A stretch of 63,943 nucleotides of DNA, taken from contig JAZSCX010000107.1 in the NCBI GenBank assembly GCA_045530865.1, positions 1-63,943 of the forward strand, written 5' to 3'. The notes beneath the pieces were generated by a model that was not told where the DNA came from, did no database searches, and was given only the letters and a program-made list of their open reading frames with translations. The position numbers were made by a program, and so were the translations under genes. The stretch comes from Candidatus Avilachnospira sp. GTDB taxonomy: Bacteria; Bacillota; Clostridia; Oscillospirales; Oscillospiraceae. Shown here one piece after another: positions 9,512-36,036 of this stretch (its first letter is position 1; every line of letters starts with the position of its first letter).

Positions 9512-10930
9512 ATGGGTGAACGTGTTGTTCTGGCGCTGGATATCGGCGCAAGCTCGGGACGGGGTATTCTCGGTTATTATAATGAGGAAACCGGCGTTCT
9601 GAGAACGGAGGAAGTCCATCGCTTCGTTCATGAGTTTATCCGTCTCAGCGGCGGTGTCTATTGGGATTATATCGGCATCTACAGAGGTGTTCTGGACTGC
9701 CTGCGTGCGTGCAAAAAGAGAAACATTCCTCTGGAATGCATCGCCATCGATACCTGGGGTCAGGACTATGCCTACATTGGCAAAAACGGTGAGATTCTTG
9801 GCCTGCCCCGCAGCTACCGGGATCCTAAGCCCGAACCCTATGCAGGAGATCTGGAAAAGGATCTTTGCATGGACAGCCATGCTTTCTGCATGCGTACCGG
9901 CGGCCCTGCCGGCGTGATCTCCACGGCACGGCAGCTGTACTATGACCGCCGCTTCCGTACCGATCTCTTCCATCAGGCCCGTTACTGGGTCTATATGCCC
10001 TATCTGTTCGTCTATCTGATGTCTGATGTGGTGGGCTACGATGTGACCCTGCCTTCTCCGGGTGAGCTGCTGGATATCAACACCATGGATATCAGCCCCA
10101 AAACCGCCACGGCTGTGGGTATCGAAAAGATCACACCGCCCCGGTTCCGCAGTGCCACTATCATGGGTCATACCAACCGCGCCGTGTTTGAGGAGACCGG
10201 CTATGAGGCTCTGCCCATCGCCTGTATCGATGCCCACGATACCTCCAGTGCTGTGGATGCCATTCCAGACACCGGCGATTTCCTCTGGATCAGCAGCGGT
10301 ACTTATAATATGTTCGGCGCTGTCATGCAGGAGACCATCCTCAATGACAAGCTGCTGGAGATCGGCTGCCGCAACACCCCTCTGGGTGACGGACGTTCCT
10401 GCCTGATGTGCGGCGCTGCCGGTATGTATTTCATCAACCAGTGCATGAAGTACTGGGCAGAGCACGGCATTGAGGTCACCTTCCCACAGCTGACGGCTTA
10501 TGCCATGGAGCACCGCAGCGACGCGTGGTTCGATTTCAAGGATCTGCCTTCCGTTCCCGTCAATATGCCCGCAGAGATCTGCGCCGCCATTGAAAAGCAG
10601 GGCTTCGCAGCTCCCACTACGCCGGAGGATCTGTATGTGATCTTTGCCAACTCTCTGGCAAAGGAAACGGCAGAGGTACTGCTGAAGCTGGAAAAAGCGC
10701 TGGACCGCAGCTTCAATCTGGTCTATGTGCTGGGCGGCGGCTCCAAGGCTTCTGCAGTCAATATGCGCATTGCGGAGCTCAGCGGCAAAAAGCTCTATAC
10801 CGGACTGACGGAGGCCGCTTCCGTAGGCAATCTGCTGTTCCAGCTCATTGCCATCGGCGCCATCTCCCGTGAGGAAGCTGCCGATGTGTCCCGCAGATCC
10901 TTCCTGCTGGAGGAGTTCGGAGCGCAGTAA
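9512..10930 (+). CDS. FGGY-family carbohydrate kinase, rhamnulokinase-like
   Basis: The N-terminal LALDIGASSGRGILG, IAIDTWGQDY and the C-terminal VLGGGSKA match the RhaB-like branch of FGGY kinases. Confidence 0.75.
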   Translation: MGERVVLALDIGASSGRGILGYYNEETGVLRTEEVHRFVHEFIRLSGGVYWDYIGIYRGVLDCLRACKKRNIPLECIAIDTWGQDYAYIGKNGEILGLPRSYRDPKPEPYAGDLEKDLCMDSHAFCMRTGGPAGVISTARQLYYDRRFRTDLFHQARYWVYMPYLFVYLMSDVVGYDVTLPSPGELLDINTMDISPKTATAVGIEKITPPRFRSATIMGHTNRAVFEETGYEALPIACIDAHDTSSAVDAIPDTGDFLWISSGTYNMFGAVMQETILNDKLLEIGCRNTPLGDGRSCLMCGAAGMYFINQCMKYWAEHGIEVTFPQLTAYAMEHRSDAWFDFKDLPSVPVNMPAEICAAIEKQGFAAPTTPEDLYVIFANSLAKETAEVLLKLEKALDRSFNLVYVLGGGSKASAVNMRIAELSGKKLYTGLTEAASVGNLLFQLIAIGAISREEAADVSRRSFLLEEFGAQ

Positions 10931-10945
10931 AGGCGGTTGATATGG

Positions 10946-11212
10946 ATGAGCATCAAAATCATTGACGGTCATTTCTACACCGGCCCGGTTCCGGAGCAGT
11001 ATGTGGATGACCGCATGCTGGAGACAACACTCCGGGTGATGGATCATCTGGATATTGAACGTGCCATCAGCGCCAACTCCTATATGTTTATTGGACATCA
11101 GTTCGAGCAGTGTCCCATGCTGGGCGTTGTCTACGGCGCCCAGATCTCCGATCTGGAAAAGGAAAAGATCCTGCGCCACAATGCACTCCGTGTGTTCTTC
11201 CATGAGGAATAA
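10946..11212 (+). pseudogene. internally deleted remnant of an amidohydrolase paralogue
   Basis: MSIKIIDGHFYTGP...VMDHLDIERAISAN is fused to ...PMLGVVYGAQISDLEKEKILRHNALRVFFHEE. These align to residues ~1-45 and ~215-260 of the next gene (11256-12038). The HxH motif has decayed to GHFY. Confidence 0.7.
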
Positions 11213-11255
11213 AACATAAACAGCTCCAACAATCAATAAGGAGGTAGACAAACTT

Positions 11256-12038
11256 ATGAGCTTCAAAATCATTGATACACATATGCACTTTGGCCCCGAA
11301 CCCGCACGGATGGTTCCTGATCACTCCGTTGAGAGCCTGGTCGCCATTATGGACCATCTGGACATCGAAAAGGGCATCAGCGCCAACTGCATGTCCCTGA
11401 GCAAAAACCTGTGGGAACAGGGTCTGCAGGATGACTTCGCTGCCTACGAAAAGAGCGGCGGCCGTATTTTCAGTTTCTTCGGTTATGATCCCCTGTACAT
11501 CGATCAGTGCGTGGAAGTCATGCGCAGACATGCCGGTGATCCCCGCTGCGTAGGCATCAAGATTCATCCCAGCGGCTCCAAGGTCAAAGCCGATGACGAG
11601 CGCTACCGCCCTGTCTGGGAGATGGCCAGAGAGCTGAAGCTGCCCCTGATGTCCCACACCTGGGATGTCTCCACCTACAACCCCAACCAGATCTATGCAG
11701 TTGCAGGTCTGTTTGAGAAGTACATCGCTGAATATCCCGATGTTACCTTCGTGTTTGGTCACTGCGGCGGCCGCTACCACGGTATCAAGCAGGCCATTGA
11801 GATCGGCAAGAAGTACCCCAATGCCCACTATGACATCACAGGCGATATCTGGCTCAACGGCTTCATCGAAGAGCTGGTGGACGGCGTCGGCGCAGACCGT
11901 ATCGTCTACGGCAGTGACTGGACCATGATCGAGCAGCGTCCCATGCTGGGCGTTGTGTACGGCTCCAACCTGCCCGCAGTGGACAAGGAAAAGATCCTGC
12001 GGTATACTGCGGCTCGTATTTACTTTGGCGAAGAATAA
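11256..12038 (+). CDS. amidohydrolase-2 (TIM-barrel metal-dependent hydrolase/lactonase/decarboxylase) family protein, catalytic-type
   Basis: DTHMH (HxH), GIKIHPS, MSHTW, FGHCGGR and YGSDW are all present. RBS AAGGAGG. Confidence 0.8.
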   Translation: MSFKIIDTHMHFGPEPARMVPDHSVESLVAIMDHLDIEKGISANCMSLSKNLWEQGLQDDFAAYEKSGGRIFSFFGYDPLYIDQCVEVMRRHAGDPRCVGIKIHPSGSKVKADDERYRPVWEMARELKLPLMSHTWDVSTYNPNQIYAVAGLFEKYIAEYPDVTFVFGHCGGRYHGIKQAIEIGKKYPNAHYDITGDIWLNGFIEELVDGVGADRIVYGSDWTMIEQRPMLGVVYGSNLPAVDKEKILRYTAARIYFGEE

Positions 12039-26295: not shown

Positions 26296-26324
26296 TTGAC
26301 TTTAGGACTTAAAAGTGCTAAAGT
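26296..26324 (+). promoter_or_regulatory. promoter of T-box leader 1
   Basis: TTGACT, a 17-nt spacer, then TAAAGT. The architecture is nearly identical to 29979-30007. Confidence 0.55.
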
Positions 26325-26330
26325 AATGGA

Positions 26331-26592
26331 GGATAAAACAACGCGATGATGGAACCAAGTACACATCCATGGGACACCGCAGAGAGCTGCCGGTTGGTGC
26401 AAGGCAGTGGGTCGGGGATGCTGGAATACCTTCCTGAGCGGCATTCCTGAACTGACAGTAGGGAATGACGGGTGCGCCCGATAAAGCGCCGGAGCCTGAT
26501 GGGGCTCGATAAGGCCGCATGATGCGGTAAACTGAGGTGGTACCACGGGAATTTCTCGTCCTCTGCGAAAGCAGAGGACGTTTTCTTTTTTA
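26331..26592 (+). promoter_or_regulatory. T-box riboswitch leader, specifier read as UAC (Tyr)
   Basis: Stem I carries GAUGA, AGUA, AGAGAG and a GGUGCAA distal loop. GAA-UAC-C lies at 26424-26430. The T-box sequence AAACUGAGGUGGUACCACGGG is at 26529-26549. A terminator (26557-26580) is followed by a T-run. Confidence 0.8.
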
Positions 26593-26616: not shown

Positions 26617-28251
26617 ATGGTTATTACGGAATTACTGGAACGAAATGCAAGACTTTACGGCAATGAGGTTGCTCTGGTGGAGATCAACCCCTCTGAGGAG
26701 CGGGACAATGCCGTCACCTGGCGGGATTTCAACCTGATCGAAAACGCCAATCCCGACGCCCCCTACCGCCGTGAAATGAGCTGGAAGGATTTTGACCGCC
26801 GAGCCAACCGGTTTGCCAACCTGCTGCTGAGCCGCGGCCTGAAAAGAGGCACCAAGGTCGCCATTTTGCTGATGAACTGTCTGGAGTGGCTGCCGCTGTA
26901 CTTTGGTATTCTGAAGGCCGGCTGCATTGCGGTTCCCATGAACTTCCGCTATTCCAGCGATGAAATTCAGTACTGTCTGGATTTGGCGGATGTGGATATG
27001 CTGATCTTTGGGCCGGAATTTGTATCCCGGATGGATCTGATTGCCGAAGCGGTCTCCCATGTAAAGATGTTCTATGTGGGCAAGAACGGCCCTGAATATA
27101 CGGAGGACTGCCTGCGGCTCATGAGCTACTGCTCCTCCAGCGCACCTCCCATCATCATGGAGGAAGAGGATCTGGCTGCCATCTATTTCTCCTCCGGCAC
27201 TACCGGCTTCCCTAAGGCCATTCTGCATAATCACCGTGCGTTGATTTCTTCCTGCAAGGTGGAGCAGAACCATCACAGCCAGAGCCGGGAGGATGTGTTC
27301 CTCTGCATCCCGCCCCTGTATCATACCGGCGCCAAGATGCACTGGTTCGGCTCTCTGCTCTCCGCCTCCAAGGCAGTGCTGCTCCGCGGCGTCAAGCCGG
27401 AGTGGATCCTCCGGGCTGTCACCGAAGAAAAGTGCACCATCGTCTGGCTGCTGGTGCCGTGGGCACAGGATATGCTGGATGCCATTGAAGCGGGCAAGAT
27501 CAATCTGGGCGACTACTATCTGGATCAGTGGCGGCTCATGCACATCGGCGCACAGCCGGTGCCGCCCAGCCTGATCAAGCGCTGGAAGAAGATCTTCCCC
27601 AACCATGCCTACGATACCAACTACGGCCTGTCCGAGTCCATCGGCCCCGGCGCGGTCCATCTGGGTGTGGAGAACATCCACAAGGTCGGCGCCATCGGCA
27701 AGGCAGGCTATCTGTGGCAGACCAAGATCATCGATCCCTCCGGCAAAGAGGTGGCGCAGGGCGATGTGGGCGAGCTGGCACTGAAGGGCCCCGGCGTCAT
27801 GCTGGAGTACTACAAGAACAAGGAAGCCACCGACGAAGTCCTCCACGGCGAATGGCTCTACACCGGCGATATGGCACGCGAGGATGAGGACGGCTTCATC
27901 TATCTGGTCGACCGGAAAAAGGATGTGGTCATCTCCGGTGGTGAGAACCTGTATCCCGTTCAGATCGAAGATTTCCTCCGCGGCTTCGAGAAGATCAAGG
28001 ACGTGGCGGTCATCGGCCTGCCCCACCCCCGTCTGGGCGAAATCGCGGCGGCCATCATCGAGATCAAGGAAGGCGTGACCTGCACGGAGGACGAGATCAA
28101 TGCCTTCTGCTCCGGAATGCCCCGCTACAAGCGCCCCAAGAAGATCATCTTCGACAAGGTGCCCAGAAACCCCACCGGAAAGATCGAAAAGCCTGTGCTG
28201 CGTGAAAAGTATTGCAAGGGCCGTCTGGTGGAAGCACAGATCACCGGTTAA
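26617..28251 (+). CDS. AMP-forming acyl-CoA synthetase / class-I adenylate-forming ligase
   Basis: SSGTTGFPKA, YHTGA, GELALKGPGVMLEYY, YTGD and GRKKDVVISGGENLYP are present. RBS AAGGAG. Confidence 0.85.
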   Translation: MVITELLERNARLYGNEVALVEINPSEERDNAVTWRDFNLIENANPDAPYRREMSWKDFDRRANRFANLLLSRGLKRGTKVAILLMNCLEWLPLYFGILKAGCIAVPMNFRYSSDEIQYCLDLADVDMLIFGPEFVSRMDLIAEAVSHVKMFYVGKNGPEYTEDCLRLMSYCSSSAPPIIMEEEDLAAIYFSSGTTGFPKAILHNHRALISSCKVEQNHHSQSREDVFLCIPPLYHTGAKMHWFGSLLSASKAVLLRGVKPEWILRAVTEEKCTIVWLLVPWAQDMLDAIEAGKINLGDYYLDQWRLMHIGAQPVPPSLIKRWKKIFPNHAYDTNYGLSESIGPGAVHLGVENIHKVGAIGKAGYLWQTKIIDPSGKEVAQGDVGELALKGPGVMLEYYKNKEATDEVLHGEWLYTGDMAREDEDGFIYLVDRKKDVVISGGENLYPVQIEDFLRGFEKIKDVAVIGLPHPRLGEIAAAIIEIKEGVTCTEDEINAFCSGMPRYKRPKKIIFDKVPRNPTGKIEKPVLREKYCKGRLVEAQITG

Positions 28252-28359: not shown

Positions 28360-29913
28360 ATGGATATGTTTATCAAAATTGCAATGCTGGTTGTATTCTT
28401 CGGTGTCACAGTCGGCGTAGGGTTGTATTGCCGGAAGCACTCTACGGACGTCAACGGCTTTGTTCTGGGAGGCCGCAGTGTTGGCCCCTGGCTGACCGCA
28501 TTTGCCTATGGCACTTCCTACTTCTCTGCCGTTGTCTTTGTGGGCTATGCAGGTCAGTTCGGCTGGAAATACGGCATTGCCGCCACCTGGGCAGGCATTG
28601 GTAATGCTTTGATCGGTTCCCTGATGGCCTGGAGTATTCTGGGACGCCGCACCCGTGTCATGACCCAGCATCTGGACAGCGCCACCATGCCTCAGTTCTT
28701 TGAGGGCCGCTTCGGCAGCAAGTCTCTGAAGCTGGCAGCTTCTGCCGTTATCTTCATTTTCCTGATCCCCTATACGGCTTCTCTGTACAACGGTTTGAGC
28801 CGCCTGTTCGGTATGGCTTTTGAGATCGATTACTCCGTCTGCGTCATTGCCATGGCAGTTCTGACTGGTATTTATGTCATTGTTGGCGGCTATATGGCTA
28901 CGGCAATCAACGATTTCATTCAGGGCATCATTATGATCGTAGGCATCATTGCCGTCATTGCTGCGGTGCTCAAGAGTCAGGGCGGCTTTCTGGAAGCCTT
29001 GAACGGCCTGTCTCAGGTGTCCGATCCCACTGTCTCCGATGCTCCCGGCGTGTTCAATTCCTTCTTTGGCCCCGATCCGGTCAATCTGTTGGGTGTGGTT
29101 CTGCTGACCTCTCTCGGCACCTGGGGTCTGCCCCAGATGGTGCAGAAGTTCTATGCCATCAAGTCGGAAAAGTCCATCAACAAGGGCATGATTATTTCCA
29201 CCATCTTTGCGGCTCTGGTTGCAGGCGGCTGCTACTTTCTGGGCGGCTTCGGCAGACTGTTCTCTGATAAGATCGATATCGCCGCCAACGGTTATGACTC
29301 TGTGATTCCCACCATGCTCTCCGGTCTGCCCACGGTTCTGATCGCTCTGGTGGTGGTGCTGGTGTTGGCTGCGTCCATGTCCACCCTGTCCTCTCTGGTG
29401 CTGACCTCCAGCTCCACGCTGACGCTGGACTTTATCAAGGGAAGTCTGGTCAAAAACATGAATGAAAAGAAACAGCTTCTGATCATGCGCCTGCTCATCG
29501 TGGTGTTCATTGCCATTTCTGTGGTGCTTGCAATTGTCCAGTACAAATCCAGCGTGACCTTCATCGCACAGCTTATGGGTGTTTCCTGGGGCGCACTGGC
29601 CGGTGCATTTTTGGCTCCCTTCCTCTATGGTCTGTACTGGAAGCGGACAAGCAAGGCATCCGTCTGGGTTTGTTTCGTGTTCTCCACCATTGTCATGCTG
29701 GCCAATGTGGTGGTAAAGTCCCTGTTCCCACCCATTCTCCAGTCTCCCATCAATGCCGGTGCATTCTGCATGCTGGCAGGTCTGGTGATCGTGCCGGTGG
29801 TCAGCCTCTTCACCAAGGCACCTGATAAGAAGCTGGTGGACGATGTGTTCTCCTGCTACGATAAAAAAGTCATGGTTCCCGTCACCGATTCCATCGGAAA
29901 CCACGAGAATTGA
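28360..29913 (+). CDS. sodium:solute symporter (SSS) family transporter
   Basis: 517 aa with about 13 TM segments. The N-terminus ...FVLGGRSVGPWLTAFAYGTSYFSAVVFVGYAG... is typical of PanF/PutP-like SSS proteins. Confidence 0.8.
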   Translation: MDMFIKIAMLVVFFGVTVGVGLYCRKHSTDVNGFVLGGRSVGPWLTAFAYGTSYFSAVVFVGYAGQFGWKYGIAATWAGIGNALIGSLMAWSILGRRTRVMTQHLDSATMPQFFEGRFGSKSLKLAASAVIFIFLIPYTASLYNGLSRLFGMAFEIDYSVCVIAMAVLTGIYVIVGGYMATAINDFIQGIIMIVGIIAVIAAVLKSQGGFLEALNGLSQVSDPTVSDAPGVFNSFFGPDPVNLLGVVLLTSLGTWGLPQMVQKFYAIKSEKSINKGMIISTIFAALVAGGCYFLGGFGRLFSDKIDIAANGYDSVIPTMLSGLPTVLIALVVVLVLAASMSTLSSLVLTSSSTLTLDFIKGSLVKNMNEKKQLLIMRLLIVVFIAISVVLAIVQYKSSVTFIAQLMGVSWGALAGAFLAPFLYGLYWKRTSKASVWVCFVFSTIVMLANVVVKSLFPPILQSPINAGAFCMLAGLVIVPVVSLFTKAPDKKLVDDVFSCYDKKVMVPVTDSIGNHEN

Positions 29914-29924
29914 TGTTCCGTTCA

Positions 29925-29965
29925 CCCCGCCGGAGATTTCCGGAAATCTCCGGCGGGGGATTTTA
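29925..29965 (+). terminator. rho-independent terminator
   Basis: CCCCGCCGGAGATTTCCGGAAATCTCCGGCGGGG followed by GATTTTAT. Confidence 0.7.
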
Positions 29966-29978
29966 TCGAAAACAGGGA

Positions 29979-30007
29979 TTGACTTTAACAGTGAAAAGTG
30001 ATAAACT
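29979..30007 (+). promoter_or_regulatory. promoter of T-box leader 2
   Basis: TTGACT, a 17-nt spacer, then TAAACT. Confidence 0.55.
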
Positions 30008-30013
30008 ATCCAA

Positions 30014-30270
30014 GAACAGAAAAACCCGATGATGAAAACCAGTACGCATCGCTTGTTTCCGCAGAGAGCTGCCGGGTGCTGTAAGGCAGTGAAACGGTGG
30101 TGCCGAATTCCTTTCTGAGGGGTCTTCCTGAACCGGGAGTAGGGGAGAACGGGTGCGCCCGATACTGCGCTAAGGATCTGTTAGGATTCGAGAGGCCGCT
30201 TTGCGCGGTAAACTGAGGTGGTACCACGGGAGATTTCTCGTCCTCTGCATGGTTTGCAGAGGGCTTTTTT
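30014..30270 (+). promoter_or_regulatory. T-box riboswitch leader, specifier read as UUC (Phe)
   Basis: It has the same Stem I landmarks as leader 1. GAA-UUC-C lies at 30105-30111. The T-box sequence is at 30210-30230. The terminator is CCTCTGCA-TGGTT-TGCAGAGG followed by T6 (30242-30270). Confidence 0.8.
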
Positions 30271-30311
30271 ATTGATAAGCGAGTGATCTGTACTGGCGCG
30301 GCAGCGCTCAA

Positions 30312-30443
30312 GGCTCCCTTGTGTAAAGGGAGCTGGCAAAATCAGCGCATCAGAGCTGATTTTGACTGAGGGATTGTTTTGTTTACAACCCCTCCGACAA
30401 AAATCAAATGGATTTTTACCACCCCCCCTTGCACAGGGGAGGC
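30312..30443. repeat. composite palindromic REP-like element inside the iorA 5' UTR
   Basis: The left unit begins GGCTCCCTTGTGTAAAGGGAGC and includes an AAATCAGC...GCTGATTT hairpin. The right unit is inverted (...CCCCCCTTGCACAGGGGAGGC). The design matches 4398-4546. Confidence 0.65.
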
Positions 30444-30488
30444 TTTGGTACCTTCAAATCTGTAGAACATTCCAAGGAGGAATTTCAT

Positions 30489-32231
30489 ATGAAAACGTTG
30501 ATGCTCGGCAACGAAGCCGTTGCCAGAGGCCTCTATGAAGCCGGATGCAGCTTTGTATCCAGCTATCCCGGTACGCCCAGTACCGAGATCACCGAAACCA
30601 TCGCCAAGTATTCCGAAGTCTATGCGGAATGGGCCCCCAATGAAAAGGTTGCCATGGAAGCCGCTTTTGGCGCCTGTCTGGCAGGCCGCCGCAGCTTCTG
30701 CGGTATGAAACACGTGGGCCTGAACGTGGCTGCCGATCCGCTGTTCACCATTTCCTACACCGGCGCCAATGCCGGTATGGTCATCGGCGTGGCTGATGAC
30801 GCCGGTATGCACAGCTCCCAGAACGAGCAGGATTCCCGCCACTACGCCAGAGCTGCCAAGATCCCCATGCTGGAGCCTTCCGACTCTGCCGAGGCGCTGG
30901 CCTTTGCCAAGCTGGCTTATGAGATCTCCGAAGAGTTTGATACTCCTGTGCTGCTGAAGATGTGCACCCGCGTGTCCCACTCCCAGAGCGTGGTGGAACC
31001 CGGCGAACGTGTCGAAGTCACCAAAACATACGAAAAGAACCCCCAGAAGTACATCATGATGCCCGGCAATGCCAAGCGCCGCCACCCCATCGTGGAGGAG
31101 CGTACCCGCAAGCTGACCGAATGGGCAGAGACTTCCTCTGTCAACCGTGTGGAGGAGGGCGAGGATCACAAGATCGGCATTATCACATCCTCCACTTCCT
31201 ATCAGTATGTGAAGGAAGTTTGCGGCGACAAATATCCCGTGCTGAAGCTGGGTATGATCTGGCCCATGCCCAAGAAGCTGATCTGTGACTTTGCCAAGTC
31301 CGTCAGTGTGCTGTGCGTGGTGGAAGAGCTGGACGGCTTCATCGAAGATCACTGCCGCAGCATGAGCCTGCCGCTGGTGGGCAAGGATACCTTCCCCTGC
31401 ATCGACGAGTTCAGCCAGAACAAGGTGGCAAAGCTGCTGGGTCTGGAGATTCCGGCCGAAGGCGCCAAGGTTGACGACGTCATTCCTGCCCGTCCTCCTG
31501 TCATGTGTGCCGGCTGCCCCCACAGAGGTCTGTACTACACCCTGGCCAAGAACAAGGTCACGGCACTGGGCGACATCGGCTGCTATACGCTGGGCGCTGT
31601 GCCTCCGCTGGCTGCTCTGGATACCACCATCTGCATGGGCGCATCCATCTCCGGCGCCCACGGCTTTGTCAAGAGCCAGAACGGTGCTGCCGACAACAAG
31701 ACCGTTGCGGTCATCGGTGACAGCACCTTTATGCACTCCGGCGTTACCGGCCTGATCAACATGGCCTACAACGAATCCAACGCCACGGTCATCATCGTGG
31801 ACAACTCCATCACCGGCATGACCGGACACCAGCAGAACCCCACCACCGGCTACAATCTGAAGGGGGATCCCTGTGCCAAGATCGATCTGGAAACCCTCTG
31901 CAAGGCCGTGGGCATTAGGCGGGTACAGGTCGTGGATCCCTACGATCTGAAGCAGTGCGATACGGTTCTGAAGGAAGAACTGGCTGCCAATGAGCCTTCC
32001 GTCATCATTTCCCGCCGCCCCTGCGCATTGCTGAAGTATGTCAAGCACAACAAGCCCCTGACGGTGGATCCTGAAAAGTGCAAGAGCTGCAAGATGTGCA
32101 TGAAGATCGGCTGCCCTGCCATCAGCATGGTGGACGGCGTTGCCAAGGTGGACAACACCCTTTGTACCGGCTGCGGCGTCTGCGCCCAGCTGTGTAAATT
32201 CGACGCCCTGCAGGCGCCCAAGGAGGTCTGA
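30489..32231 (+). CDS. iorA: indolepyruvate:ferredoxin oxidoreductase alpha subunit (TPP- and 2x[4Fe-4S]-binding)
   Basis: MKTLMLGNEAVARGLYEAGCSFVSSYPGTPSTEI is the N-terminus. A GDSTF TPP motif is present, and the C-terminus carries CKSCKMCMKIGCP...CTGCGVCAQLC. RBS AAGGAGG. Confidence 0.88.
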   Translation: MKTLMLGNEAVARGLYEAGCSFVSSYPGTPSTEITETIAKYSEVYAEWAPNEKVAMEAAFGACLAGRRSFCGMKHVGLNVAADPLFTISYTGANAGMVIGVADDAGMHSSQNEQDSRHYARAAKIPMLEPSDSAEALAFAKLAYEISEEFDTPVLLKMCTRVSHSQSVVEPGERVEVTKTYEKNPQKYIMMPGNAKRRHPIVEERTRKLTEWAETSSVNRVEEGEDHKIGIITSSTSYQYVKEVCGDKYPVLKLGMIWPMPKKLICDFAKSVSVLCVVEELDGFIEDHCRSMSLPLVGKDTFPCIDEFSQNKVAKLLGLEIPAEGAKVDDVIPARPPVMCAGCPHRGLYYTLAKNKVTALGDIGCYTLGAVPPLAALDTTICMGASISGAHGFVKSQNGAADNKTVAVIGDSTFMHSGVTGLINMAYNESNATVIIVDNSITGMTGHQQNPTTGYNLKGDPCAKIDLETLCKAVGIRRVQVVDPYDLKQCDTVLKEELAANEPSVIISRRPCALLKYVKHNKPLTVDPEKCKSCKMCMKIGCPAISMVDGVAKVDNTLCTGCGVCAQLCKFDALQAPKEV

Positions 32232-32233
32232 GC

Positions 32234-32806
32234 ATGAAAACGAAGAACATTATGATCGTCGGCGTCGGTGGACAGGGCTCTCTGCTTGCCTCCAAGCTGC
32301 TGGGCCGTCTGCCGCTGACCAAGGGCTATGATATCAAGGTTTCCGAGGTCCACGGCATGAGCCAGCGCGGCGGCAGTGTGGTCACCTACGTCCGTTATGG
32401 CCAAAAAGTCTATTCTCCCATCATCGATAAGGGCGAGGCCGATTTTATCGTGTCCTTTGAACTGCTGGAAGCAGCTCGCTGGACGGAATATCTGAAGGTC
32501 GGCGGTAAGATCGTTGCCAATACTCAGCAGATCAACCCCATGCCCGTCATCATCGGCGCAGCCGAATACCCCGCTGATCTGGCAGGCAAAATGCAGGCTG
32601 CCGGCGTGGATCTGGATGCCTTTGACGCTCTGAAGCTGGCGGAAGAGGCCGGTTCCTCCAAGGCTGTCAACATCGTCCTCATGGGCCGCTTGTCCAAGTA
32701 CTTTGATTTTAGCATGGAAGAGTGGATGGACGCCATTGAAAAGAGCGTCCCTGCCAAGTTCCTGGAACTGAACAAAAAGGCCTTCCAGCTGGGCCGTGAA
32801 GCCTGA
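32234..32806 (+). CDS. iorB: indolepyruvate:ferredoxin oxidoreductase beta subunit
   Basis: IMIVGVGGQGSLLASKLLG...SEVHGMSQRGGSV is the pyruvate/ketoisovalerate oxidoreductase gamma-like domain. It starts 3 nt after iorA. Confidence 0.85.
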   Translation: MKTKNIMIVGVGGQGSLLASKLLGRLPLTKGYDIKVSEVHGMSQRGGSVVTYVRYGQKVYSPIIDKGEADFIVSFELLEAARWTEYLKVGGKIVANTQQINPMPVIIGAAEYPADLAGKMQAAGVDLDAFDALKLAEEAGSSKAVNIVLMGRLSKYFDFSMEEWMDAIEKSVPAKFLELNKKAFQLGREA

Positions 32807-32871
32807 CCCGTTAAACCAAACCCAGCCTCCCTGTAAAGAGAGACTCCGCACACCAAATAGGAGTGAAAAAT

Positions 32872-34170
32872 ATGGCAAACTACTACCAGCCTGAAATTGA
32901 AACCATGCCCCGCGAGCAGCTCGTCGCGCTGCAGAACGAGCGCCTTGTGAAGCAGGTACAGCATGTGTGGGACAACGTGCCCTACTACCGTAAGAAGATG
33001 GAGGAGAAGGGTGTGACCCCCGCCGATATCCAGTCCATCGACGATCTGCACAAACTACCGTTTTTGTCCAAAGCCGATCTGCGGGATGCCTATCCTTATG
33101 GCCTCAAGGGCGTGCCCACCTCCGAATGTGTCCGCATCCATTCCACCTCCGGTACCACCGGCAAGCGGGTGGTTGCATTCTACACCCAGCATGATATCGA
33201 TCTGTGGGAAGACTGCTGTGCCAGAGCCATTGTGGCAGCCGGCGGTACCAAAGAAGATGTGGTACAGGTCTGCTACGGCTACGGCCTGTTCACCGGCGGT
33301 TCCGGTCTCCATGGCGGTTCTCACAAGGTCGGCTGCCTGACCCTGCCCATGTCCTCCGGCAACACGGAGCGGCAGCTGCAGTTCATGACCGATCTGGAAT
33401 CCACCATTCTCTGCTGCACGCCTTCCTATGCCGCCTATCTGGCCGAGTCCATCCACGAGGCTGGTCTTCGGGACAAGATCAAGCTGAAGGCCGGTATTTT
33501 CGGCGCAGAAGCCTGGTCGGAAGAAATGCGCCATGATATCGAGAAGAATCTTGGCATCAAAGCCTATGATATCTACGGTCTGACGGAGACCTCCGGCCCG
33601 GGCGTTGCCTACGAGTGCGAAGAGCAGACCGGTATGCACATCAATGAGGACCACTTCATCGCCGAGATCATCGATCCCGTCACCGAAGAAGTGCTGCCGG
33701 AAGGCTCCAAGGGTGAGCTGGTGTTCACCGCCATCACCAAGGAAGCATTCCCCCTGCTGCGCTACCGTACCCGCGATATCTGCGTACTGACCCGGGAAAA
33801 GTGCTCCTGCGGCAGAACCCATGTGAAGATGTCCAAGCCCATGGGCCGCAGCGACGATATGCTCATTGTCAAGGGCGTCAATGTGTTCCCCTCTCAGATC
33901 GAAGCTGTTCTGCTGGAGCAGGGCTATCAGGCCAACTATCAGATCGTGGTGGATCGTGTCAATCATTCCGATACACTGGAGGTTCTGGTGGAAATGACCG
34001 CCGAAAACTTCTCCGACTCTCTGGCAAAGATCTACGAAATGGAAAAGAAGCTGGTGGATGCCTTGAAGGTTATGCTGGGCATCTATGCCAAGGTTCGTCT
34101 CGTTGCGCCCAAGTCTATCGCCCGCAGCGAAGGCAAGGCTGTACGTATCATTGACAAACGGAAGATCTAA
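32872..34170 (+). CDS. phenylacetate-CoA ligase (PaaK family)
   Basis: YYQPEIETMPREQLVALQNERL...VPYYRKKM...IHSTSGTTGKRVV...YGLTE... is the PaaK-type short adenylate-forming enzyme. Confidence 0.85.
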   Translation: MANYYQPEIETMPREQLVALQNERLVKQVQHVWDNVPYYRKKMEEKGVTPADIQSIDDLHKLPFLSKADLRDAYPYGLKGVPTSECVRIHSTSGTTGKRVVAFYTQHDIDLWEDCCARAIVAAGGTKEDVVQVCYGYGLFTGGSGLHGGSHKVGCLTLPMSSGNTERQLQFMTDLESTILCCTPSYAAYLAESIHEAGLRDKIKLKAGIFGAEAWSEEMRHDIEKNLGIKAYDIYGLTETSGPGVAYECEEQTGMHINEDHFIAEIIDPVTEEVLPEGSKGELVFTAITKEAFPLLRYRTRDICVLTREKCSCGRTHVKMSKPMGRSDDMLIVKGVNVFPSQIEAVLLEQGYQANYQIVVDRVNHSDTLEVLVEMTAENFSDSLAKIYEMEKKLVDALKVMLGIYAKVRLVAPKSIARSEGKAVRIIDKRKI

Positions 34171-34182
34171 GGAGGTAATAAC

Positions 34183-34614
34183 ATGCGTATCCATCAAATC
34201 TCTGTATTTCTGGAAAACCGTGCCGGACAGCTGGCGGAAATCACGAAAATCCTCGCTGATAACGGCATTGACCTCCGGGCCATCTCCATTGCAGAAACTG
34301 CCGATTACGGCGTGCTGCGCATGATTGTGGACAATGCGGAAAAGGCCACCGGCATTCTGCTGACCCATGGCTATATTTTGTCCATGACCCCTGTTCTGGT
34401 GGTTGGCGTGCCGGATCAGCCCGGCGGTCTGGCTCCTGTGCTGGCTGTTCTGGCTGAAGGCAATATTGATATCGAGTATATGTACTCCCTGTTCACCCCG
34501 GAGCAGGGTAAGGCCTACATGGTATTCCGGATCTCCGACGAGGCCAAATTCCTGGAGCTGATGACGGCTCACGGGATGCAGCTGGCGACCGCCGAAGAGC
34601 TGGGTGTAAAATAA
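34183..34614 (+). CDS. tandem ACT-domain protein (small-molecule/amino-acid binding)
   Basis: MRIHQISVFLENRAGQLAEITKILADNGIDLRAISIAE is followed by a second ACT-like half. This is the usual partner downstream of PaaK-type ligases. Confidence 0.75.
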   Translation: MRIHQISVFLENRAGQLAEITKILADNGIDLRAISIAETADYGVLRMIVDNAEKATGILLTHGYILSMTPVLVVGVPDQPGGLAPVLAVLAEGNIDIEYMYSLFTPEQGKAYMVFRISDEAKFLELMTAHGMQLATAEELGVK

Positions 34615-34660
34615 AGCATAAAAAATCGCTGCAGTTCCAAACTGCAGCGATTTTTATGCT
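34615..34660. terminator. bidirectional terminator (about 20-bp stem)
   Basis: AGCATAAAAATCGCTGCAGT-TCCAA-ACTGCAGCGATTTTTATGCT. Confidence 0.75.
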
Positions 34661-36036
34661 TATGCATTCTTTTTGGGTTTCAGGCGGATGATGCCCAGCA
34701 GCAGGAAGTAGTACACGATGACCAGCCCCAGAACCAAAAAGGTCATCGCATCGGATTTGGTAGCCATGCTGACGAGGATCAGCAGCGGAGCACCCAGCAT
34801 AATGCCGAAACTGCTGCCCAGCACCAGATTGTTGGAAGCGGGGGTTTTGAGCTGCGGATCCACTTCGCGCAGCAGCAGAACGCCGGAGCTGATGGTGCCG
34901 GTGAGCATACCGTACATGGACAGCAGTCCTTCGTAATAGTAATTGCCGTAGACACGCTTGCAGACCAGCTTCAGGTGGATCAGGGTGATCACGGCACCGG
35001 TCACGGACATGATAACGAAGGGCAGCCACAGGCCGGACAGATTGGAAATTTCGATGGAACCGATACCGGCCACGATCATCAGGTCAAAGGCCAGACCAGA
35101 CAGTCGGCTCAGAAGGTAGTTGTTCTGATACTGCCGGGTCATGACCTTGGAGGAGCGCAGATGCTTGAACAGCACCCGCACGCCAATGGCGATGGCAGAG
35201 CCGATGATGAAATTGAAGCCCCACAGCAGGGAATTGAGGGTGTTGCCCAGTCCTGGGGAGATGGCGGTCAGACCGGAAGTAATGCCCCAGGTAAGGAGAA
35301 AGGTCAGACCGTATACGGCCAGCACCAGACAGGCCTGCATGGAGAAACGGTCGAGAGATTCGGAAATGGGGATCTCGTTTTTGTCCTGAAAGGTATCCAC
35401 GGTCACAGAACCGGAGATCACTTCATGGTTGGTTTCCGGCAGCTGGCCTCTGCGCTTCAGGAAGTTCATGTAGAACACGCCAACGATGCAGGCGGAGAGA
35501 TAACCGGCAGCGGCAATGGCCAAACCGAAAGCACGGCCGCCCGCAAAGCCGAGGCTCTCATAGGAAGCGCCGATGTTGTTGGCCTGACCGGGGCCCTGAC
35601 CGTAGCCCAACGGAAGCAGAATGCCGGAGGCCTTGAACAGACCGGGCATGATGGTATAGGCCAGTGCAAGGGAGATGATCAGACCGGCAATGGCCTGAAT
35701 CATATATGTACTGACGATGACGGCACCGCTCTTGAGACCAATGCGGCCTGCCTTGTCCTCCTGCGTCCGTTCCGGGATGCGAAGAGACTGGGCAATAAAG
35801 CCGATGGCGATGCAGTGATAGGTGATAAACTCATAGAATGCCGGATCCACGGGAATCAGACCGAGGGACTTGCCCAGCAGTACCAGAAAACCGCCCAGAA
35901 CGGCAGTGGGCATCAGGCTTTTGCGGATGAAGGGGATCTTTCTGCGCAGTACATTGGCCAACAGAATGGCGGCGGCAATGATGCCGATCTGGATGATACT
36001 GTTCCATAACTGGGTATTGGCGGCTGAGTAATCCAT
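34660..36036 (-). CDS. gltS: sodium/glutamate symporter (ESS/GltS family)
   Basis: 458 aa. ...LRRKIPFIRKSLMPTAVLGGFLVL... and ...LPLGYGQGPGQANNIGASYE... are typical of GltS. Confidence 0.75.
   Translation of the reverse strand: MDYSAANTQLWNSIIQIGIIAAAILLANVLRRKIPFIRKSLMPTAVLGGFLVLLGKSLGLIPVDPAFYEFITYHCIAIGFIAQSLRIPERTQEDKAGRIGLKSGAVIVSTYMIQAIAGLIISLALAYTIMPGLFKASGILLPLGYGQGPGQANNIGASYESLGFAGGRAFGLAIAAAGYLSACIVGVFYMNFLKRRGQLPETNHEVISGSVTVDTFQDKNEIPISESLDRFSMQACLVLAVYGLTFLLTWGITSGLTAISPGLGNTLNSLLWGFNFIIGSAIAIGVRVLFKHLRSSKVMTRQYQNNYLLSRLSGLAFDLMIVAGIGSIEISNLSGLWLPFVIMSVTGAVITLIHLKLVCKRVYGNYYYEGLLSMYGMLTGTISSGVLLLREVDPQLKTPASNNLVLGSSFGIMLGAPLLILVSMATKSDAMTFLVLGLVIVYYFLLLGIIRLKPKKNA

Follow-up and report, generated by a model that had tools for sequence, protein, structure and literature searches.

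In a 63,943-nucleotide (nt) stretch of the genome of Candidatus Avilachnospira sp. (GCA_045530865.1, contig JAZSCX010000107.1, forward strand; hereafter the window), two adjacent transcription units are each controlled by a T-box, the first with a tyrosine (Tyr) specifier and the second with a phenylalanine (Phe) specifier. The Tyr unit encodes an adenosine monophosphate (AMP)-forming acyl-coenzyme A (CoA) ligase, lig544, and a sodium/solute symporter; the Phe unit encodes the two subunits of indolepyruvate:ferredoxin oxidoreductase (IOR), a PaaK-like phenylacetate-CoA ligase, and a protein with a pair of ACT domains. Together the two units probably constitute a salvage route in which arylacetates are converted to arylacetyl-CoA, then to arylpyruvates, and finally to Phe or Tyr, with the genes running in the anabolic direction. 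T-boxes control aminoacyl-tRNA synthetases and the biosynthesis and uptake of amino acids, and they allow read-through when the cognate tRNA is uncharged. The anabolic reading is favored because T-box regulons supply the scarce amino acid and because the gene content encountered here fits supply, comprising an importer of the SSF or MFS family, two AMP-forming ligases, a reversible IOR and often a transaminase.

The leader in front of iorA (leader A; features lie on the plus strand unless stated otherwise) was compared with the Rfam T-box model RF00230, for which the gathering score is 93 bits over model positions 1-219. The segment 30020-30248 matches the model throughout, from position 1 to 219, with 126.4 bits (E=1.2e-27), and with its terminator the leader spans 30020-30270. 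An earlier note on this DNA had described a complete T-box leader element by element, and each element lies where it had been placed: the K-turn GAUGA of Stem I at 30028-30032, the AGUA/GAA S-turn, the AGAGAG bulge, and the T-box sequence AAACUGAGGUGGUACCACGGG at 30210-30230, which contains the UGGU bulge at 30219-30222. The intrinsic terminator, given in the earlier note as 30242-30270, is located by a terminator scan at 30240-30270, with a stem at 30240-30264 followed by a UUUUUU tract to 30270, and the antiterminator overlaps it. Folded alone, Stem I (about 30025-30122) forms a canonical K-turn, specifier loop, AG bulge and distal loop; Stems II and III are also present. Both the sequence and this fold bear out UUC (Phe), at 30108-30110, as the specifier, with the GAA of the S-turn immediately 5' and the UUUC of the lower helix 3' of it. 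Across 32 homologous T-boxes, compensatory changes keep pairing in 33 of the 53 predicted base pairs. Leader A is a complete transcription-attenuation T-box with a Phe specifier, and read-through is therefore expected when tRNA-Phe is uncharged.

A homologous T-box, leader B, precedes lig544. The earlier note had recognized the Phe unit and had missed this second T-box together with lig544 and the symporter of the same system. Leader B (26337-26586) matches RF00230 over 26337-26566 with 125.7 bits (E=1.8e-27), again from model position 1 to 219. Its specifier is UAC (Tyr) at 26427-26429, its UGGU bulge lies at 26538-26541, and its terminator, found by the same scan, occupies 26557-26580 and is followed by a U-tract. 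The two specifiers stand in equivalent contexts, GAA-UAC-C in leader B and GAA-UUC-C in leader A, and each leader possesses its own promoter and terminator. The variable base of the bulge, U in both leaders, would pair with a discriminator A73, the base carried by bacterial tRNA-Phe and tRNA-Tyr. No tRNA gene was found in the window, and those encountered in related loci are tRNA-Val or tRNA-Gln only.

The Phe unit opens with iorA (30489-32231), the ATG of which is preceded by an AAGGAGG ribosome-binding site. Its product, the alpha subunit of an indolepyruvate (arylpyruvate):ferredoxin oxidoreductase, contains the Pfam domains POR_N, TPP_enzyme_C and Fer4, that is, a thiamine pyrophosphate (TPP)-binding region and two [4Fe-4S] sites, and scores 709 bits against TIGR03336, past the equivalog cutoff of 650.9. 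The beta subunit is encoded by iorB (32234-32806; PF01558, POR), which reaches 277 bits against NF005325 (cutoff 230), and by these family cutoffs IorAB is predicted to be an IOR. The next gene (32872-34170) encodes a 432-residue ligase that we call PaaK-like because its score against TIGR02155, 508.9 bits, falls below the equivalog cutoff of 646.3. Solved PaaK structures match it over residues 6-434 (2Y4O, E=6e-122; 2Y27, E=1e-119; 4R1L, E=3e-119). Its start is most likely the ATG at 32872, which has a GGAG ribosome-binding site and gives a protein of 432 residues, as in relatives; a GTG at 32863 is disfavored on the same two counts. The unit ends with a 143-residue ACT-domain-pair protein (34183-34614; PF19571, ACT_8, E=4e-25; PDB 2F06, E=4e-24), putatively a regulator that binds or senses a small molecule, namely an amino acid. 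The gene assignments of the earlier note hold for iorA, iorB and the ACT pair; that of PaaK holds by comparison with solved structures and fails at the TIGR02155 cutoff.

In the Tyr unit, lig544 (26617-28251; 544 residues; PF00501, PF13193) encodes a FadD-like AMP-forming acyl-CoA ligase. Its closest solved structures are FadD13 and the feruloyl-CoA and 4-coumarate-CoA ligases; it reaches no NCBIfam equivalog cutoff, and family and solved-structure searches are uninformative as to its substrate. It may represent a second arylacetate-CoA ligase, possibly acting on 4-hydroxyphenylacetate. The symporter (28360-29913; 517 residues) belongs to the SSF family (PF00474, 197 bits) and lies below all NCBIfam subfamily cutoffs; family searches likewise do not indicate what it carries, and it is a putative arylacetate importer.

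We next turn to the relatives of this locus. A scan restricted to one genome per species yielded 80 loci encoding IorA at 72-90% identity, drawn from Oscillospirales (Faecousia, Acutalibacteraceae, Avoscillospira, Flavonifractor and Pseudoflavonifractor) and from genomes labelled Lachnospiraceae; many are from ruminant-gut metagenome-assembled genomes. When the six proteins of the window were mapped onto these loci, some of which are truncated by contig ends, a conserved cluster emerged with the order lig544-(SSF)-iorA-iorB-paaK-ACT. The ligase lig544 adjoins iorA in 58 of the 80 loci, paaK adjoins iorAB in 70, an ACT gene follows paaK in 62, and the SSF gene is present in 36. Clustering of neighboring open reading frames (ORFs) identified a class I aminotransferase of about 389 residues as the commonest extra gene, directly 3' of the ACT gene and on the same strand (for example L004, positions 10095-11264; related loci are designated by L numbers). 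By tblastn it is present in 20 of the 80 loci, among them 12 that carry a T-box (L004, L008, L011, L021, L032, L033, L041, L070, L072 and L076-L078). Among solved structures it is most similar to kynurenine/glutamine transaminases (E=9e-70), to YbdL of E. coli and to 1DJU, the aromatic aminotransferase of Pyrococcus (E=1e-55). One locus, L006, retains the minimal set lig544-iorA-iorB-aminotransferase. The window contains no homologue of this aminotransferase, and Pfam assigned the genes flanking its operon only to sugar metabolism, glycoside hydrolases and housekeeping functions, with no aromatic biosynthesis gene among them.

The survey of T-box and ior synteny suggested in the earlier note shows that the linkage recurs. 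An iterated nhmmer profile built from both window T-boxes detected homologous T-boxes on the coding strand before the cluster. Among the 71 loci whose sequence extends 300 nt or more beyond the 5' end of the first complete cluster gene, 28 possess one or two cluster T-boxes. The specifier is Phe alone in 13 loci, Tyr alone in 13 and both in two; no other specifier, Trp included, occurs on the cluster among the 28. Ten T-box loci rescanned with Rfam each contain a cluster T-box above the gathering score. No diverged T-boxes were found in T-box-less relatives by Rfam at the gathering threshold (10 loci) or by iterated nhmmer. The T-box loci are labelled Oscillospirales or, unresolved, 'Clostridia/Eubacteriales', with one labelled Chloroflexi, and no Lachnospiraceae-labelled locus has a cluster T-box. 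The earlier proposal of Phe synthesis from phenylacetate thus finds support in comparative data, namely in T-boxes with only Phe or Tyr specifiers at 28 of 71 loci, in the layout of close relatives and in gene content, all of which lend weight to an anabolic direction.

How the two T-boxes are distributed is equally informative. Loci L032 and L033 reproduce the window layout, with TAC before lig544 and TTC before iorA, and in every two-T-box genome the Tyr T-box precedes lig544 and the Phe T-box precedes iorAB-paaK. In a MAFFT alignment of 32 sequences the triplet after GAA is T-[T/A]-C: its first (T) and third (C) bases never change, and all variation falls on the second. Every aligned cluster T-box has GGUGGUACC and a terminator. 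The T-box of L011 (TAC) is 85-87% identical to those of L004, L008 and L013 (all TTC), and that of L076 (TTC) is 83% identical to those of L077 and L078 (TAC); the specifier has evidently switched between UUC and UAC among close relatives, judging from these identities. In L032 and L033, the Phe T-box beside iorA most resembles its counterpart in the other locus and, after that, the Tyr T-box of its own genome; this pattern of pairwise identity points to a duplication within that lineage. A Tyr-specifier T-box also stands immediately after the cluster ACT gene in two Lachnospiraceae loci (L052, 10477-12152; L057, 10290-10614), and in L052 it precedes tyrS, a canonical T-box target.

The boundaries of the two units were mapped by promoter and terminator scans. 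The Tyr unit has a promoter at 26296-26324 (-35 TTGACT, extended -10 TGcTAAAGT), the sequence of which recurs in many related loci, and the Phe unit has a sigma-70-like promoter at 29979-30007 (TTGACT, a 17-nt spacer and TAAACT with an upstream TG). Between the units lies a hairpin terminator with a 15-bp stem (29925-29958), and the operon ends at a bidirectional hairpin terminator (34621-34655), beyond which the adjoining genes lie on the minus strand. The protein search with IorA listed matches of 81-95% identity, and among the matches listed the closest relatives are L081 (GCA_054284425.1), L082 and L083 (JGI metagenomes), with IorA 93% identical. The two-T-box layout is kept in L081-L083, of which L082 and L083 show only the iorA-proximal Phe T-box, their contigs being cut upstream. 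The Phe-unit promoter is kept in all three, and an equivalent of the intervening hairpin is found in L081 and L082. Convergent on the operon terminator, a 458-residue ORF on the minus strand (34660-36036) has a gene-like G+C content at third codon positions (GC3) and no Pfam or NCBIfam match; at its position L081 has no gene and L082 has a 478-residue gene with weak ACT and metallo-beta-lactamase matches.

One feature of the window is peculiar to it. Between the terminator of leader A and the start of iorA lies a 218-nt spacer (30271-30488) containing two perfect hairpins (30313-30333 and 30337-30364). In L081-L083 no more than about 30-65 nt separate the T-box terminator from the ATG of iorA, and the spacer is therefore an insertion private to the window genome or its lineage. 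A repeat or mobile element was considered for it and rejected, as no second copy occurs in the window or in the 80 loci. Because this terminator-iorA insertion is unique to the window, leader A might be thought a decaying or insulated relic, with the insertion supplying a promoter of its own and iorAB-paaK-ACT expressed independently of tRNA-Phe. We regard this as very improbable, given that leader A retains all conserved elements and scores like the T-boxes of relatives, that the promoter scan finds no promoter-like site in 30271-30488, and that in close relatives devoid of the insertion iorA directly follows the same T-box.

Taken as a salvage pathway, the system would operate as follows. 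The anticodon of uncharged tRNA-Phe(GAA) would pair with the UUC specifier of Stem I and its free NCCA end with the UGGU of the T-box bulge; binding would favor the antiterminator against the terminator at 30240-30270 and let polymerase read into iorA-iorB-paaK-ACT. PaaK would then convert phenylacetate and adenosine triphosphate (ATP) to phenylacetyl-CoA with release of AMP and pyrophosphate, and IorAB, with reduced ferredoxin and CO2, would reductively carboxylate phenylacetyl-CoA to phenylpyruvate. A class I aminotransferase, presumably encoded elsewhere in the window genome and found inside the operon in 20 relatives, would complete the synthesis of Phe. In parallel, uncharged tRNA-Tyr acting through the UAC specifier would induce the sodium-coupled importer and the second AMP-forming ligase, the products of the Tyr unit most likely importing and activating an arylacetate, for which 4-hydroxyphenylacetate is the obvious candidate. 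The direction of flux, the substrates of the ligases and of the transporter, and the sensing role of the ACT protein are those that we infer from the genes and their regulatory signals.

The same enzymes can be arranged to run the other way. In a catabolic operon, an aminotransferase and IOR would oxidize Phe and Tyr to arylacetyl-CoA, the ligases acting in reverse or a thioesterase would free the arylacetates, the transporter would export them, and the T-box would be incidental or serve some other purpose. IOR is indeed reversible, genes of this kind are usually annotated as catabolic, and reversal of AMP-forming ligases is reported for some syntrophs. Moreover, 10 loci (L042, about 2184-2590; L018, L033, L039, L043, L047, L056, L058, L072 and L074) have a gene for a PaaI-like hotdog (4HBT) thioesterase upstream of lig544, and 43 of the 71 assessable loci have no T-box. 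However, degradation induced when the substrate amino acid is scarce makes no regulatory sense, and the restriction to Phe and Tyr specifiers holds over 28 loci and has been kept through specifier switches and T-box duplications. Activation of free acids by two AMP-forming ligases is effectively irreversible, and no phosphotransacylase/kinase or ADP-forming synthetase occurs among the conserved cluster genes or their recurrent neighbors. In the T-box loci that have the thioesterase, L033 and L072, its gene lies upstream of the T-box and outside its control. A catabolic role is accordingly improbable. In Lachnospiraceae-type loci the thioesterase is the first gene after the conserved promoter described below.

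A second alternative keeps the anabolic direction and loosens the substrates. Here the amino acid sensed by the T-box would be a proxy for a broader set of acids (phenylacetate, 4-hydroxyphenylacetate, indoleacetate and perhaps others), lig544 and the SSF protein would have no Tyr-specific role, and the symporter might import an amino acid. Several observations are compatible with this: single-T-box relatives place all the genes under one amino acid, whether Phe or Tyr; close relatives differ in specifier with unchanged gene content; and neither lig544 nor the SSF protein has a diagnostic subfamily match. T-box control of amino-acid transporters is also common (Wels 2008, PMC2494555). Weighing against it, no Trp or other specifier occurs on the cluster in 28 loci, and in two-T-box genomes the Tyr T-box always stands in front of lig544 and the Phe T-box in front of iorAB-paaK. 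Beside iorA, five loci (L049, 4695-5915; L051, L055, L028 and L035) encode an MFS transporter instead of the SSF protein, a non-orthologous displacement in which a transporter is kept at that position; this bears on retention of a transporter and not on its substrate. On balance we consider this alternative unlikely, if less so than a catabolic operon. Within the salvage reading, an assignment of the Tyr arm to 4-hydroxyphenylacetate and of the Phe arm to phenylacetate is attractive and weaker than the reading as a whole; we hold it to be rather less than evenly likely.

Several points weigh against salvage as we propose it. The presumed direction of flux is drawn from regulatory logic. The split layout would have Tyr limitation induce a ligase and an importer and leave IOR uninduced, and a strict equation of the first unit with a Tyr route is incomplete; the single-T-box relatives further indicate that specifier and ligase specificity are not tightly coupled. 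The T-box-less majority of assessable loci makes the control lineage-specific, and the PaaI-like thioesterase beside the cluster in 10 loci also suits a CoA-releasing, catabolic direction. To these are added the missing subfamily assignments of lig544 and the SSF protein, the score of PaaK below its NCBIfam equivalog cutoff, and the 218-nt insertion that in the window genome only splits the terminator from iorA. Finally, both leaders have C immediately 3' of the specifier (30111 and 26430), where a conserved purine is usual. Across the T-boxes of this cluster family, that base is C in most and A or G in a few.

The cluster promoter deserves description in its own right. It is common to T-box-bearing and T-box-less genomes, Lachnospiraceae included. 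Within it lies a palindrome of 22 bp, TTTAGCACTT-AA-AAGTGCTAAA, which covers the extended -10 and the spacer between -35 and -10. In the window a near-palindrome of 22 bp overlaps the Tyr-unit promoter at 26301-26322, with one mismatch to TTTAGCACTTAAAAGTGCTAAA and none expected by chance, and a weaker site lies at 29984-30005; other sites are at 2694-2715 in L003, at 2715-2736 in L048 and in many other loci. The palindrome could be a candidate operator for a transcription factor acting on top of the T-box. Directly upstream of iorA and on the same strand, L062 (5674-5997) and L038 (5626-5919) encode a TrpR-family protein (PF01371), and in L062 the same TTAAAGTG motif occurs in a promoter ahead of that gene. 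From this arrangement, the TrpR-family regulator is a candidate binder of the conserved palindrome; the window has no homologue of it. T-box-less leaders (L001, 4228-4350; L006, 4187-4298; L018, 2489-2642; L026, 5847-6001; L027; L029) have the same promoter followed by about 75-125 nt ending in a strong intrinsic terminator, and these short leaders match no Rfam family at the gathering threshold. The short leader of L001 resembles an internal deletion of a T-box, and partial profile matches in L026, L027 and L029 cover the terminator-proximal part only. The Flavonifractor and Pseudoflavonifractor leaders are conserved among themselves and include a possible antiterminator.

Comparison with known systems places both the regulation and the chemistry. 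The window leaders resemble RF00230 T-boxes that act by transcription attenuation, such as those of B. subtilis tyrS and glyQS, in their full architecture, their UGGN bulge and their NNC specifier codons. They differ in having C and not a purine 3' of the specifier, in the toggling between Phe and Tyr among orthologous leaders, and in their targets: T-boxes usually govern an aminoacyl-tRNA synthetase, de novo biosynthesis or an amino-acid transporter, whereas those of the window govern IOR, putative arylacetate-CoA ligases and a solute symporter.

With regard to chemistry, Methanococcus maripaludis, according to what Porat and colleagues reportedly described in 2004, uses IOR to incorporate aryl acids into aromatic amino acids. 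The proposed route of the window shares with it an aryl-acid CoA ligase and a reductive IOR that gives arylpyruvates, there for Phe, Tyr and Trp. The methanogen route is archaeal and has no T-box, whereas the genes considered here are bacterial, lie next to those for a transporter, an ACT protein and, frequently, an aminotransferase, and come under Phe and Tyr specifiers only. Rumen anaerobes are said, from physiological labelling by Allison in 1965 with no gene assignment, to make Phe from phenylacetate by reductive carboxylation. The proposed chemistry is the same and the habitat is of the same kind, that of anaerobic gut and rumen Clostridia, and here candidate genes and a regulatory signal, both known from sequence alone, are added. 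The cluster agrees with salvage of the Allison/Porat type in encoding an aryl-acid CoA ligase together with IOR.

The aerobic paa catabolon of E. coli, Pseudomonas and Burkholderia shares the PaaK-like ligase, which is similar to Burkholderia PaaK1 (E=6e-122) and PaaK2 (E=1e-119). The partner in the window is instead IOR, an oxygen-sensitive ferredoxin oxidoreductase, and no ring epoxidase, paaABCDE-type ring-attack genes or other paa genes turned up among the scanned ORFs of the window (at least 150 residues) or the recurrent neighbors of the 80 loci, which sets the locus apart from that catabolon. Gut anaerobes, through the IOR of Bacteroides and PorA of Clostridium sporogenes, oxidize arylpyruvates and produce phenylacetate and indoleacetate; the enzyme family and metabolites are the same, and the flux proposed for the window is opposite and controlled by a starvation signal.

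The T-box mechanism is canonical and the pathway chemistry has precedent, and what we describe is not a new mechanism. What appears to be new is the IOR/PaaK cluster, along with its transporter, second ligase and aminotransferase, as a conserved member of the Phe/Tyr T-box regulon in Oscillospirales with a toggling specifier. The main texts of Wels 2008 (PMC2494555), GapMind 2020 and Sun 2013 contain no mention of indolepyruvate or phenylacetate; an earlier description elsewhere, for example in RegPrecise or Vitreschak 2008, is possible.

In its widest form, which we advance tentatively and judge to have a chance slightly short of even, the proposal holds that many gut and rumen Oscillospirales possess a dedicated, tRNA-gated operon for converting arylacetates to Phe and Tyr. 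It would combine uptake, two activating ligases, a reductive IOR, an ACT sensor and often an aminotransferase. Single-nucleotide changes would repeatedly have switched its T-box between Phe and Tyr, and duplication would have divided control between IOR and PaaK as the Phe arm and lig544 with the importer, acting on 4-hydroxyphenylacetate, as the Tyr arm. The operon would then constitute the missing genetic basis of reductive carboxylation in the rumen, and in the gut these bacteria would on balance consume, and not produce, phenylacetate and 4-hydroxyphenylacetate.

For annotation, IOR/PaaK clusters under Phe or Tyr T-boxes would be read as amino-acid salvage, which gives a direction to genes routinely labelled catabolic. 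A pathway that has been studied chiefly by isotope labelling of rumen bacteria would thereby acquire candidate genes, together with a transporter and a regulator. Within one orthologous operon, the family also illustrates how a T-box specifier switches in nature (from UUC to UAC and the reverse) and how a T-box is duplicated. The findings suggest that some common gut Oscillospiraceae may remove both phenylacetate and 4-hydroxyphenylacetate; the first of these gives rise to phenylacetylglutamine, a metabolite of the host that has been associated with cardiovascular risk. For these organisms themselves, a salvage route of this kind would bear on the prediction of aromatic amino acid auxotrophy from genomes.

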